Assembly (NCBI GenBank): GCA_965217565.1
Contig: CBDCIS010000003.1
Location: forward strand, 550,876-582,875
Length of the DNA: 32,000 bases
Direction: 5' to 3'
From: Dehalococcoidia bacterium
GTDB lineage: Bacteria; Chloroflexota; Dehalococcoidia; Lucifugimonadales; CATOSD01
The position numbers and the translations under genes were made by a program. A model generated the notes under the pieces. It was not told the DNA's origin. It saw only the letters and a program-made list of their open reading frames with translations, and did not search any database. Positions within the stretch are counted from its first letter, which is position 1, and every line of letters begins with the position of its first letter. Positions 19,063 through 25,954 of this stretch are shown in pieces.

Positions 19063-19250
19063 ATGGCGATTGACCAGTGTCCGGTTTGCGGCGGGCAGTT
19101 GGTAGAGAGAGAGAAGTCGAGAATACGCAGAGCAATGGGGTTGAGTCTGCCACCGTAACTATCTCCGCCGATGTCTGCCTGCGTTGCGGAGAACAGCTAT
19201 ACACCTTGGGCGCGCCTCGAAAGGGTTCGCCGAGAACTCGCTGAGGGTAG
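19063..19250 (+). pseudogene. Decayed YgiT/MqsA-type zinc-finger antitoxin remnant
   Basis: First CxxC (19078-19089) and second CxxC (19176-19187) are in different frames. There is an in-frame TAA at 19156. A (GA)n run at 19102-19116 is the likely frameshift site. Confidence 0.4.
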
Positions 19251-19374
19251 TTGCTGCGGAATGGGCCACACAAGGTCAATCTTCCGCTTGCCGCATGGAA
19301 CAAAGCAAGCGCAGAGCGAGTTAGGGGACAGACAATCGCGGCCTAGGCCGTGGAGTGTGCGCAGCATCAATCTG

Positions 19375-19983
19375 ATGCCGAACGGCGCAGAGCAAGACCG
19401 CGCCGATTCTCGATTCGAGAAGATCGTAAACGCTCATCTGGGACACGAGGAGTCCCCTGAAGGGGACCTGGATTACGTTGATTATGCCTGCGCGCCCGAC
19501 GACAGCTTGGGCAGGCAGATTGAGGATCGCATCGTCGAACGCATCCTGAAAGAGTTTTCCGGCGATAAGCTGGACTACCTTGTGGCGAGCGTGCTGAGGG
19601 CTGTAAACGATGAAATGACGTGGCCCCTGCGCGTGCGCGACAGCGGAATCGACGTGCCGACCCGCAAAGGATTCATCGGTTTCGGAGAGCCGAGATTGAT
19701 GGTGCAGATCGAATCCGGCCCCGGACCAGTGGGCATCCCCGGCTACAACAGGTTTCTCGAAAACGTGCGCGCTAACCGCGAGGACCATGGGTTGATGGTC
19801 GGTCTTGGTGGCTTCACCAAGGCGGTCCGCGAGCAAAACCAACCGGCGTTCCATCAGTTCAGGTTGTGGGGGCCGGTTGAATTGGCGCAGGCGTTGCAGG
19901 ATACCTACGACAACCTGCCGCAGGACATTCGCGCTGCCGTTCCCCTGGAGAACCGAAAGGTGCTCGTGGAGTCGGAAGCCTGA
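19375..19983 (+). CDS. Mrr-like restriction endonuclease-fold protein (possibly inactive)
   Basis: DSGIDV...MVQIESG...GLGGFTKAV...FRLWGPVEL...YDNLPQDIRAAVPLE resembles the Mrr_cat family. The position that usually holds the catalytic Lys reads Glu. Confidence 0.6.
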   Translation: MPNGAEQDRADSRFEKIVNAHLGHEESPEGDLDYVDYACAPDDSLGRQIEDRIVERILKEFSGDKLDYLVASVLRAVNDEMTWPLRVRDSGIDVPTRKGFIGFGEPRLMVQIESGPGPVGIPGYNRFLENVRANREDHGLMVGLGGFTKAVREQNQPAFHQFRLWGPVELAQALQDTYDNLPQDIRAAVPLENRKVLVESEA

Positions 19984-23890: not shown

Positions 23891-23976
23891 AGGAGTCTCC
23901 TTACCGGGGATGAGCTACTCCAAAACGAGTGGAGAAGGAAGGCGGCAGTTGGGCTAGACTGGGAGTCGTTGGCGCG

Positions 23977-24540
23977 CTAGATGAGACTGGCTCCTCGGAG
24001 AGCATCATATGCGTCTTCTATCGTGTCTGCGCTGAACTTAGGCTTCACCTTGCCTACGGTGCTCAGAGCCTCGTCCTTGGACATGTTGCCATTCGGCCCC
24101 GCCAAAAGGTGGACAGTGGCGTAGAGTTCAAGAATATGGGTTTGGAGACCTGCGAGAATGTCAATGACATCATCGACGAATTCCACATCGGCATCTGTAT
24201 CCTTCTCCATTTCGTAGTCCTGAAACCACGTGTTCTCCCTAACCTGGCCAGGTGTCACATGAAAGCCAAAGCCATTGGGATCGGGCTTGATTTCGACGTA
24301 GCCAAGGGCTTCGGAGAGCGAGAGGGTATTGTCGAGATCGTTCGAATATGGGCCAAAGTAGTGCATCCTAAAACGGTAGTTTAAGGGAATGCCAACTGCT
24401 TCTTGCAGGAAGTATGAAATCTTCTGGACCTTGGTTTTGCCTATGTCACCGTGACTGTCGACAGCCCGGTCGACTATCTTTTGGATGAAGGCCAACCTTC
24501 TAACGTCCATCTCAAAGTTGTTCATAGCGTTACCTTCCAT
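23977..24540 (-). CDS. YwgA-like / DUF4065 (Panacea)-like protein
   Basis: KTKVQKISYFLQ...FRMHYFGPYSNDLD resembles the KLQK..Y...F..YGPYS.EL core of YwgA/DUF4065 proteins, recalled from memory. Starts 4 nt downstream of the HD gene. Start may be 24540 or 24525. Confidence 0.55.
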   Translation of the reverse strand: MEGNAMNNFEMDVRRLAFIQKIVDRAVDSHGDIGKTKVQKISYFLQEAVGIPLNYRFRMHYFGPYSNDLDNTLSLSEALGYVEIKPDPNGFGFHVTPGQVRENTWFQDYEMEKDTDADVEFVDDVIDILAGLQTHILELYATVHLLAGPNGNMSKDEALSTVGKVKPKFSADTIEDAYDALRGASLI

Positions 24541-24544
24541 AAAT

Positions 24545-25855
24545 CTATGCCATTATCTGTCGACAAAAGTCTCTGATCTCCTTCTCCAGTGCATCATCAT
24601 GACGGACATCCGCATATACTCTGCATTGCAAAACCTTATCGAGACTCCCTAAAGCTCTGGAAAGATTGGTTAGCGACGCCCAACGGCCATCCCGTCGCCT
24701 AACTGGCCAATTTTCATCACCCATTCTGAATCGCTCTGGATGGTCTGTTGCTCTGTCTTTCCAAGTCTGCACATGGGGATATTTCTGTTTCAATCCTTCA
24801 GGCAGATTCCTCATTGCATTATCTGCCTCAATCTGGTCGGGATGGTCACCAGTCTCATACACTGGCTTGGGATGTTGACGAGAGGCCAGTCTCCAAGCAG
24901 TGTTTCTAGCTTGTTCATCAATACGCGGGTGCAACTCAGCCAAGACTCTCCAATCGTTCCACTCGACGAATTCTGTCACCTTCTCAGGGTATCGTCCTGT
25001 CCCACAGTCTTGTCTGAGAAGTTCACCAATGAAGTCTGTCAACAGCAGATCGTATGCCCGTCGTACCGGGTGAAAGTAAACTTGGGTGAACATGAAATAC
25101 CTGGCCAGGATAAATCCTTCTATTGCGTTGATGCCGCCATGTCCAATGCCCAGTTTGAGAGTGCCATCTGGATGTTGGTCAAAGAGAGCTATCGTATCCA
25201 ATATCCTGTCCAAGTCGTACGAGCCGTACCGAACGCCACAATAAAGGGAGTCCCGAAGCAAGTAGTCCATCTTATCTACATCCCATACACTGTCAATGAG
25301 GTCTGGAACGAAGCCCACCTCGTACAACCCTCGTTTACCAAGGATCTGAGCGACTCGCTCAGCAGTCACATCCCACTCGGCACGTTGGCTATCAATTGTG
25401 CTAACAATGCCCAAATCCTCTGACAGCAGAATCTCCACGCTGTAATCCTCGTGCCGCCTTCTATCGGGGAATAGGGCATCCTCACCAGTATGCGAAAAGG
25501 GCGCGTGGCCGATGTCGTGCAGCAGTCCAGCCAAGCGGGCCTCCAGTACGATCTGATCGACTTTCGACTCAAACTCCTTCTCAGACCACCCTTGGCGCTC
25601 CTTTAGTAGCCCTCTGTGATTGGGATGTCTAAGCAACTTCCCGGCGAATCGCCCTGCGAGGTGCATCACTCCGAGGGAGTGACCGAATCGTGAATGTTCC
25701 GCGCCATGATATACATTTGAAGTCAGACCGAGTTGACGTATGCCACGCAAACGCTGGAAGGCAAGTGTATCTATTATCTCCTTCTCCCAGTCGAAAACGC
25801 CGATGTAGCCATGCACCGGATCCCTGAAGGTCTCAGTTGTTTCAGGCAGGGGCAT
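24545..25855 (-). CDS. SAMHD1-like HD-domain phosphohydrolase (COG1078; YwfO/EF1143-type putative dNTP triphosphohydrolase)
   Basis: FRDPVHGYI, QRLRGIRQLG, RFGHSLGV, LLHDIGHAPFSH and DKMDYLLRDS motifs in the canonical order. Confidence 0.9.
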   Translation of the reverse strand: MPLPETTETFRDPVHGYIGVFDWEKEIIDTLAFQRLRGIRQLGLTSNVYHGAEHSRFGHSLGVMHLAGRFAGKLLRHPNHRGLLKERQGWSEKEFESKVDQIVLEARLAGLLHDIGHAPFSHTGEDALFPDRRRHEDYSVEILLSEDLGIVSTIDSQRAEWDVTAERVAQILGKRGLYEVGFVPDLIDSVWDVDKMDYLLRDSLYCGVRYGSYDLDRILDTIALFDQHPDGTLKLGIGHGGINAIEGFILARYFMFTQVYFHPVRRAYDLLLTDFIGELLRQDCGTGRYPEKVTEFVEWNDWRVLAELHPRIDEQARNTAWRLASRQHPKPVYETGDHPDQIEADNAMRNLPEGLKQKYPHVQTWKDRATDHPERFRMGDENWPVRRRDGRWASLTNLSRALGSLDKVLQCRVYADVRHDDALEKEIRDFCRQIMA

Positions 25856-25954
25856 AGCAACTCAGTAATGGCACAAATGTTCGCTGCGTAAGAGTATAGC
25901 ACTAATCAATGGGATATTTCTACCTTTTCTCGCTGCAAACCGCAACCCCCGCGC

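Follow-up and report, generated by a model that had tools for sequence, protein, structure and literature searches.

A conserved gene pair joining a predicted SAMHD1-type dNTP triphosphohydrolase to a relative of the DarG toxin-binding domain

A 32,000-nt stretch of the genome of a Dehalococcoidia bacterium (GenBank assembly GCA_965217565.1, contig CBDCIS010000003.1, forward-strand positions 550,876 to 582,875; the whole stretch is called the window here) carries two adjacent genes on its minus strand, in a low-GC patch flanked by nadE and a luciferase-like monooxygenase (LLM) oxidoreductase gene. The first gene encodes an HD-domain protein predicted to hydrolyse deoxynucleoside triphosphates (dNTPs), and the second encodes a small YwgA-like protein whose nearest characterised relatives block toxins. 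The two genes are paired obligately, and the pair is inherited and diverges as one unit. The window locus is an ordinary copy of a widespread, uncharacterised module. What is new in this module is that an antitoxin-type domain is paired with a new enzyme class and, seen from the other side, that a dNTP triphosphohydrolase (dNTPase) is paired with a new partner class. There is about an even chance that the pair works as a partner-restrained dNTPase, that is, as a nucleotide-depletion module resembling a toxin-antitoxin (TA) or an abortive-infection system.

Identity of the two proteins

A first-pass annotation, made from the sequence alone, had read the upstream gene as a SAMHD1/COG1078-type HD enzyme. 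Pfam, phmmer, Foldseek and residue conservation all agree with that assignment. The translation of the open reading frame (ORF) contains the motifs RFGHSLGV, LLHDIGHAPFSH and DKMDYLLRDS in this order, and the protein matches the Pfam families PF01966 HD (40.9 bits; cut-off 22) and PF19276 HD_assoc_2 (32.4 bits; cut-off 23.1). Searched against the PDB with phmmer, it matched Aquifex 2hek at 8.6e-49, Enterococcus faecalis EF1143 (2o6i/3irh/4lrl) at 1e-43, and SAMHD1 at ~1e-19. The AlphaFold2 model of the protein had a predicted local distance difference test (pLDDT) score of 82.8, and in Foldseek it aligned over its full length with EF1143 (template-modelling score, TM, 0.71-0.73; E 2e-18) and with fungal and human SAMHD1 (TM up to 0.77). 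In other words, the HD protein has its whole-length fold and its catalytic residues in common with EF1143, 2hek, YwfO and human SAMHD1. The regulation of these four enzymes is allosteric, by nucleotides, and to our knowledge no protein partner of the kind found here has been described for any of them.

The conservation of catalytic residues was counted over 75 non-identical HD proteins linked to a partner gene. The metal ligands H59, H113, D114 and D194 were unchanged in all 75, as were R56, H117, H122, H135, D197 and R201, and Y198 and D202 were unchanged in 74. The fourth ligand, D194, is presumably the equivalent of SAMHD1 D311, an equation made by motif comparison. Taken at the level of sequence and modelled fold, the HD protein is a full-length dNTP triphosphohydrolase of the SAMHD1/EF1143 type in which every catalytic residue is intact, and its activity is predicted accordingly from that type. 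A Dgt-type anti-phage dGTPase was considered as an identity for it and was rejected: the model NF041026 gave 27.1 bits against a cut-off of 400, and TIGR01353 gave 37.3 bits against a cut-off of 152. The PADLOC dGTPase model matched weakly and in part (36.6 bits, residues 27-129 only). Dgt-type dGTPases resemble the HD protein in that they too are nucleotide-depleting dNTPases of the HD superfamily, but they are single-gene systems, and their models fit the HD protein weakly and in its N-terminal part only.

What is the second protein? It had been labelled as similar to YwgA and DUF4065. A Pfam search assigned it to no family, and the DUF4065/Panacea model did not match even at E<=1. Likewise, no Pfam family was found in 10 distant members of the small-protein family, and a phmmer search of the PDB with the small protein returned noise alone (GlnRS, E 0.7). 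Profile comparison was more informative and identified the C-terminal domain of the antitoxin DarG as the demonstrable relative. The small protein matched the PADLOC DarG profile at 4.5e-15 over positions 158-326 of 329 and the NCBIfam antitoxin_DarG profile at 8.5e-12 over positions 165-333 of 338; the latter match reached 45 bits, against a cut-off of 250. An hhalign comparison of the small-protein family with 11 DarG proteins scored 99.3% (E 3e-20) and aligned residues 11-187 with DarG residues 169-345. This match bears out the earlier proposal that the partner is related to antitoxin domains.

The predicted fold leads to the same relative. The AlphaFold2 model of the small protein, built with 25 homologues, had a pLDDT of 91, and its sole significant PDB fold match in Foldseek was to chains B/D of 7YK3, which are DarG in the DarTG complex of Mycobacterium tuberculosis (E 1.3e-4, TM 0.60). 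A search of the viral fold collection BFVD with the same model returned uncharacterised archaeal-virus proteins only. Further evidence came from a scan of genomes for the peptides QKIxYFLQE and FR[MI]HY[FY]GPY, which returned two kinds of locus. One kind encoded stand-alone proteins of ~180 aa adjoining an HD gene. The other kind encoded macro-domain DarG proteins of 341-378 aa that adjoined DarT and carried the motifs in their C-terminal half; true DarG proteins were recognised in loci L040, L043 and L051 (Macro, 74-93 bits). By these comparisons the small protein is a stand-alone, full-length homologue of the C-terminal toxin-binding domain of DarG. The likeness of the pair to DarTG (PDB 7YK3) extends to its layout, as in both an enzyme gene comes first and a neutraliser gene second in a tight bicistron. 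Membership of the pair in DarTG was rejected: the small protein, at 182-187 aa, is without the N-terminal macrodomain (ADP-ribosyl glycohydrolase) of DarG, and its neighbour is an HD dNTPase, not the ADP-ribosyltransferase DarT.

The evidence for a relation of the partner to Panacea antitoxins is less direct. A profile search returned 2,762 clusters (50% identity) for the small-protein family at E<=1e-3, and the best 150 of these were stand-alone proteins; most measured 164-197 aa, and a few were shorter fragments. The JGI name 'uncharacterized protein YwgA' is attached to eleven of the best-scoring clusters, and P0356, the one of them whose context was looked up, sits straight after an HD gene. 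Three HD-linked relatives of the small protein (L041, L038 and L036) scored 23.6, 18.8 and 14.9 bits against the Panacea model PF13274, below its cut-off of 25.7; these sub-threshold relatives come from Desulfocucumis, Ignavibacteria and Zixibacteria, and the best of them reached an E-value of 1e-4. The small-protein family thus stands at the edge of the Panacea/DUF4065 model. The original label is partly supported, by the JGI names and by the sub-threshold relatives, but not by a Pfam DUF4065 match of the window protein itself. The link to Panacea runs only through the sub-threshold matches of relatives and through a published statement of homology between DUF4065/Panacea proteins and the C-terminal domain of DarG (PMC13621843).

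The pair resembles the Panacea/DUF4065 systems of PanA and SocA (PMC8832971) in its small neutraliser-type domain, in the pattern K-x-Q-K-x-x-Y-x-x-Q ... G-P-[VY], and in its two-gene TA-like layout. Panacea antitoxins neutralise toxins through complex formation, and their GPV signature is reported to be critical for neutralisation. The window protein differs from them in that it has no PF13274 match and carries GPY, not GPV. G63 and P64 are unchanged in the family, and the third residue is Y65, not V, in at least 90% of the alignment (A1). A second difference lies in the choice of partner, as PanA swaps partners freely whereas the YwgA-like subfamily is monogamous with the HD gene. In the main text of the Panacea paper the terms HD-domain and phosphohydrolase each occur 0 times, and no toxin of either kind is mentioned (PMC8832971).

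The small proteins of two related loci, L039 (6001-6546) and L041 (5995-6528), also match the PADLOC candidate PDC-M19A (E 8e-6 and 6e-5), which suggests that the domain also occurs in this still uncharacterised candidate for a defence system.

The N-terminal half of the small-protein model has a helix-helix-hairpin-helix-hairpin layout and draws MarR/SlyA-like matches in Foldseek. This layout, together with the habit of many type II antitoxins of repressing their own operon, would suit a protein that is mainly a winged-helix autoregulator of the operon, or a factor that binds DNA or single-stranded DNA (ssDNA). We consider such a role very improbable. The MarR-like matches are weak and not significant (E 0.3-1, probability 0.1-0.5), and the acidity of the protein (isoelectric point 4.7; net charge -10 over residues 101-140, numbered from M6, the likely start codon) is unusual for a DNA binder. 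Moreover, its significant homologue is the C-terminal domain of DarG, which the title of Deep 2023 reportedly presents as a protein-binding ssDNA mimic.

Co-inheritance, base composition and genomic location

In every readable context an HD/HD_assoc_2 gene of ~390-460 aa was found directly next to the small gene, upstream of it, although decayed in some. Among the Chloroflexota loci the HD gene was intact in 23 and decayed in two (L018 and L030). The pair was also present in Zixibacteria, in Ignavibacteria, in Desulfobulbus alkaliphilus and in Desulfocucumis palustris, and four distant members of the small-protein family (25-33% identity to the reference of a diverse alignment) were likewise paired with an HD gene. 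In a Planctomycetia locus the gene order was reversed. The taxonomic span of the pair thus runs over Chloroflexota, Zixibacteria, Ignavibacteria, Desulfobulbus, Desulfocucumis, Planctomycetia and Terriglobales.

A scan of metagenomes centred on the HD gene gave 80 loci with identities of 35-69%, and 70 of them had at least 450 nt of downstream sequence. A YwgA-like ORF stood right after the HD gene in 70/70 of these, in one case on the opposite strand. The earlier claim of a conserved two-gene module is confirmed by this count. The two genes have also diverged in step: the pairwise identities of the HD proteins and those of their partners were correlated at r = 0.90, a value that none of 999 Mantel permutations reached (0/999). 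Chance adjacency was rejected: the pairing was 70/70, and all the related loci examined had the pair again. The genes form a conserved bicistron, less than 100 nt apart, found in several species and in variable context, which is the layout looked for in type II TA systems.

A dip in GC content of the pair had been reported as ~48% against ~65% for its neighbours. The dip is real but smaller: the pair is at 50.6% and the remainder of the window at 62.5%, and the lowest 500-nt windows lie at 47.8-50.4%. GC content at third codon positions (GC3) was 0.53 and 0.61 in the two genes and 0.85-0.87 in nadE and the LLM gene, and the dip is driven mainly by these positions. Could the pair be a foreign islet, gained recently and by this genome only? 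Its position 12 GC points under the rest of the window and the difference in GC3 would fit such an islet, and horizontal acquisition was what the first-pass annotation had read from them. The comparison with other hosts makes this most unlikely. The pair was lower in GC than its flanks in 27/27 loci (L011-L041), by 7-16 points with a mean of 11.4, in flanks that ranged from 0.42 to 0.67 GC. Pair GC follows the host: it was 0.31 in Ignavibacteria, where the flanks were at 0.42, and 0.57 where the flanks were at 0.67. Because the deficit appears in 27/27 loci whatever the GC of the host, low GC is a trait of the family, a foreign-like codon usage in every host, and not a sign of recent transfer here. 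The reading of the dip as a mark of acquisition has therefore been dropped. A universal GC offset of this kind is typical of a mobile or accessory gene pool, but selection for low expression or xenogeneic silencing could also explain it.

Together with the composition, the genomic location is a signature of accessory genes. Flanking genes were in common in only 18/253 pairs of Chloroflexota loci, and a few groups of related genomes shared many flanks and with them the insertion context, for example L011-L013 and L022/L024/L029. Such shared contexts show that the pair passes vertically within lineages, although in general its location varies. Beside the pair in the window, no direct repeats, integrase or tRNA were seen in the ORFs and gene tables that were read, which also speaks against a recent islet.

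Restraint of the enzyme by its partner, and the alternatives

Both animals, with SAMHD1, and bacteria, with Dgt-type dGTPases and Clover, use depletion of dNTPs as an antiviral strategy. How might the pair serve such a strategy? The enzyme of the SAMHD1/EF1143 type encoded by gene 1 would cut dNTPs to deoxynucleosides and triphosphate. Gene 2, probably starting 19 nt downstream in the same operon, would supply an acidic protein with the fold and core motifs of the DarG C-terminal domain. The small protein would bind the dNTPase directly and restrain it, inhibiting rather than activating it, as the homologous DarG domain restrains DarT. On its own the enzyme would then be toxic. Loss, titration or displacement of the partner, with phage infection or stress as possible triggers, would lead to depletion of dNTPs and to stalling of DNA replication, and a phage phenotype of the module would be expected. 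The partner may, more speculatively, dock on the nucleic-acid or oligomerisation surface of the enzyme, and the enzyme would then be set free by phage DNA or by loss of the partner; this is suggested because SAMHD1 has been solved with DNA (8d9j, a complex that was itself among the fold matches of the HD model) and because ssDNA mimicry is ascribed to the DarG domain.

Precedents for this scheme exist. DarT is bound and inhibited by the C-terminal domain of DarG (PMC8832971, citing Jankevicius 2016; PMC13621843, citing Deep 2023). In function, the nearest parallel to the proposed mechanism is Clover (PMC12265719), a two-gene operon whose dNTPase is toxic by itself and is kept in check by the second gene product. 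Without its partner CloB, which makes the inhibitory nucleotide p3diT, the dGTPase CloA of this operon is potently toxic (PMC12265719). The likeness ends with the partner: CloB is a nucleotidyltransferase, whereas Pfam, NCBIfam and PADLOC show no nucleotidyltransferase domain in the partner here, which is more like an antitoxin domain that binds a protein.

A further point in favour of restraint is that the HD gene has decayed in several copies that keep their partner. L001, a public ENA contig with a 99.9% match to the window, carries an extra 848-bp insertion sequence (IS) of the IS5 family at L001 8045-8892, located by blastn. The element is IS427/IS1031-like; its inverted repeats are GAGGGTGTGTGAGAAGT, and its two transposase ORFs overlap. 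The same contig also has the substitution H59R at the catalytic histidine. The window has neither the substitution nor the element, and its HD gene is intact; the two versions are predicted to differ in whether the enzyme is functional. A similar situation was found in three population variants (L058/L059/L060) that are ~97% identical in nucleotides and encode an identical small protein. In L060 the HD gene is whole; an IS3-family element splits it in L058 (2905-4208), and an IS21 element does so in L059 (1592-4112). In L098 (549-1911) and L099, whose HD genes are ~50% identical to that of the window, a different IS5-family transposase lies between HD residues 75 and 83. Residues 75-83, an AT-richer linker after the helix of residues 56-75, may be a hot spot for IS insertion.

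Decay took another form in L018 (5823-7343), where only residues 391-436 of the HD gene are left, an opposite-strand ORF of 702 aa stands in its place, and the partner is intact. The four independent IS insertions (L001, L058, L059 and L098/L099) all lie in the HD gene and none lies in the partner, and no locus among those examined had an intact HD gene with a broken partner. Enzyme-only loss is the pattern predicted by a TA pair. Frameshift-like splits of the HD gene in L011, L029, L038 and L049 were not counted as decay, as they occur in low-coverage long-read contigs. As a separate observation on L018, its partner gene is followed by a short pair of genes that, going by sequence only, were taken for a Phd/YefM-like and PIN-like toxin-antitoxin.

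Some loci place the pair near known or candidate defence genes. In Desulfobulbus alkaliphilus DSM 24258 (L039, 1248-9619) it lies between hmaA and hmaB of the PADLOC candidate system 'Hma', in which HmaA is an SNF2 helicase (649 bits) and HmaB a DUF1156 adenine methylase (390 bits). Here the pair looks like a cassette embedded in another system. Other loci have AbiU nearby, or an LmuB-like ATPase, or PDC-S26 together with an integrase and transposases. An association with defence islands, which the first-pass annotation had put forward as a check, is therefore present at some loci (Hma, AbiU, LmuB-like) but not at the window locus, which by its neighbour genes is not in a defence island. The companion check with PADLOC came out negative: PADLOC v2 holds no model that would call the pair as a system, and none would be called at the window locus. 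The suggestion that the system is undescribed stands, as no paper found in the library searched presents the pair as a system or treats ywfO and ywgA together.

Several results weigh against a partner-restrained toxic dNTPase. The asymmetry of the IS insertions is not significant alone, as the HD gene makes up ~70% of the target and 4/4 insertions in it correspond to p ~0.24; some of the HD 'frameshifts' may be long-read assembly errors. Within the partner subfamily no swapping of partners was seen, which is the behaviour of a dedicated subunit rather than of a promiscuous antitoxin. A search for the partner in collections of viral contigs, phages and plasmids returned nothing beyond DarG proteins, unlike what is seen for many TA modules. 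Many related loci, that of the window included, lie among ordinary metabolic genes. In Bacillus subtilis, ywfO and ywgA presumably form a core chromosomal pair, and ywgA, which we take to be absent from the list of essential genes, would as a non-essential gene argue against strong toxicity of the enzyme alone.

The same results bring in a serious rival explanation, namely housekeeping control of dNTP pools. In this explanation the HD enzyme trims or sanitises dNTPs, as has been proposed for EF1143, YwfO and Caulobacter Dgt, and the YwgA-like protein is a regulatory or scaffolding subunit (an activator, a specificity factor or a localiser) with no TA or anti-phage role. Strict 1:1 pairing and co-divergence suit an obligate heteromeric enzyme as well, and the metabolic surroundings of many loci and the absence of the pair from the phage, viral and plasmid collections searched also count for this explanation. 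The family also bears the name of B. subtilis ywgA. In the literature, YwfO-like proteins are discussed as housekeeping nucleotide hydrolases (PMC4993169), and cell-cycle roles have been described for bacterial dNTPases (PMC12186491). We nevertheless hold housekeeping control to be less likely than restraint by the partner. A housekeeping gene pair would not be expected to show foreign-like codon usage in all 27 hosts and a different location in most genomes, to suffer repeated knock-outs by IS elements in natural populations, or to have a copy inside an Hma defence operon. Furthermore, the only characterised relatives of the partner are toxin-neutralising domains.

How cells that carry a dNTPase avoid poisoning themselves is an active question. 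The present comparison links a bacterial SAMHD1-like clade to a co-inherited small protein with toxin-blocking relatives, and it offers a hypothesis for the long-uncharacterised ywfO and ywgA of B. subtilis. A broader proposal, that YwfO-clade dNTPases carry a dedicated inhibitor of the DarG C-terminal domain/Panacea superfamily that YwfO-YwgA, the B. subtilis pair among them, is a widespread and as yet unrecognised protein-gated nucleotide-depletion module of the immune or TA type, and that the fold common to the DarG C-terminal domain, Panacea and YwgA is a general 'enzyme muzzle', is offered only tentatively, and we would sooner expect it to fail than to hold. If restraint by the partner were true, the list of toxins handled by the antitoxin fold would extend to an enzyme of the nucleotide pool, and a protein-based rather than nucleotide-based way of regulating dNTPases could come to light. 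If instead the pair were a housekeeping one, it would still define an unnoticed regulatory subunit of a widespread dNTPase.

Gene calls and surroundings of the window locus

The two ORFs lie where they had first been placed, carry the motifs that had been listed for them, and are separated by 4 nt when called mechanically. The small ORF contains the core KVQKISYFLQ...YFGPYSNDLD in its translation. The size of 187 aa and the 4-nt spacing given for it are correct for the mechanical ORF, but the real partner product is probably the 182-aa protein that starts at M6, which leaves a longer spacer. This start is preferred because of the starts of homologues and because of a Shine-Dalgarno-like GGAAGG (24533-24538) that lies 7 nt upstream of the M6 ATG. 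The equivalent of M6, or a later residue, is the start in all 24 aligned small-protein homologues except P0016, which has a five-residue N-terminal extension of its own. Spacers in homologous loci are ~4-30 nt long or are replaced by short overlaps. The coordinates of the features are collected in the table.

Table. Features of the gene pair in the window (positions numbered from the first letter of the window)
Feature	Position	Strand	Remarks
Promoter-like site TAGAAA-18-TATACT with TG extension	25893..25922	-	~38 nt upstream of HD start; consensus scan, 9/12 matches
HD gene	24545..25855	-	436-aa predicted SAMHD1/EF1143-type (COG1078, YwfO-like) dNTP triphosphohydrolase
H59 codon, first metal-binding histidine (RFGHSLGV)	25679..25681	-	75/75 partner-linked HD proteins
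Site of the L001 IS5-family insertion, after HD residue 75	25628..25633	-	insertion not in window
H113-D114 codons, HD dyad in LLHDIGHAPFSH	25514..25519	-	75/75 partner-linked HD proteins
D194 codon, fourth metal ligand, in WDVDKMDYLLRD	25274..25276	-	75/75 partner-linked HD proteins
Spacer, HD stop codon to likely partner start	24526..24544	-	19 nt; read from sequence
Partner gene	23977..24525	-	182-aa YwgA-like protein (probable start); mechanical ORF 23977..24540 = 187 aa

The region has no more promoter-like sites than shuffling would lead one to expect, which makes the match upstream of the HD gene weak evidence for a promoter. A second, sigma-70-like match (TTGACA-16-TAAGAT, 10/12 consensus matches) lies inside the HD coding region at 25269-25296 on the minus strand; going by the consensus match alone, it could drive transcription of the partner independently of the HD start.

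The genes next to the pair encode an NAD synthase of 559 aa upstream and a Bac_luciferase/LLM monooxygenase of 334 aa downstream. The wider surroundings in the window are metabolic or unrelated to defence, and include an amidohydrolase, the LLM and NadE proteins, SIS and Fe-ADH proteins, FtsH and a CoxM-like protein. The sole defence-flavoured gene near the pair, ~4 kb off, encodes a protein of 270 aa with an Mrr_cat restriction-endonuclease domain (19171-19983 on the plus strand, E 4e-5) in a slightly GC-poor stretch. Two more genes on the plus strand are of note. A 233-aa protein with an NYN domain, a predicted RNase fold, is encoded at 6168-6869 and coincides with another low-GC patch of the window (0.53). 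At 2513-4456 lies a gene for a 647-aa ankyrin-repeat protein that consists almost wholly of Ank repeats (E 8e-86), an uncommon feature in a genome of Dehalococcoidia type.

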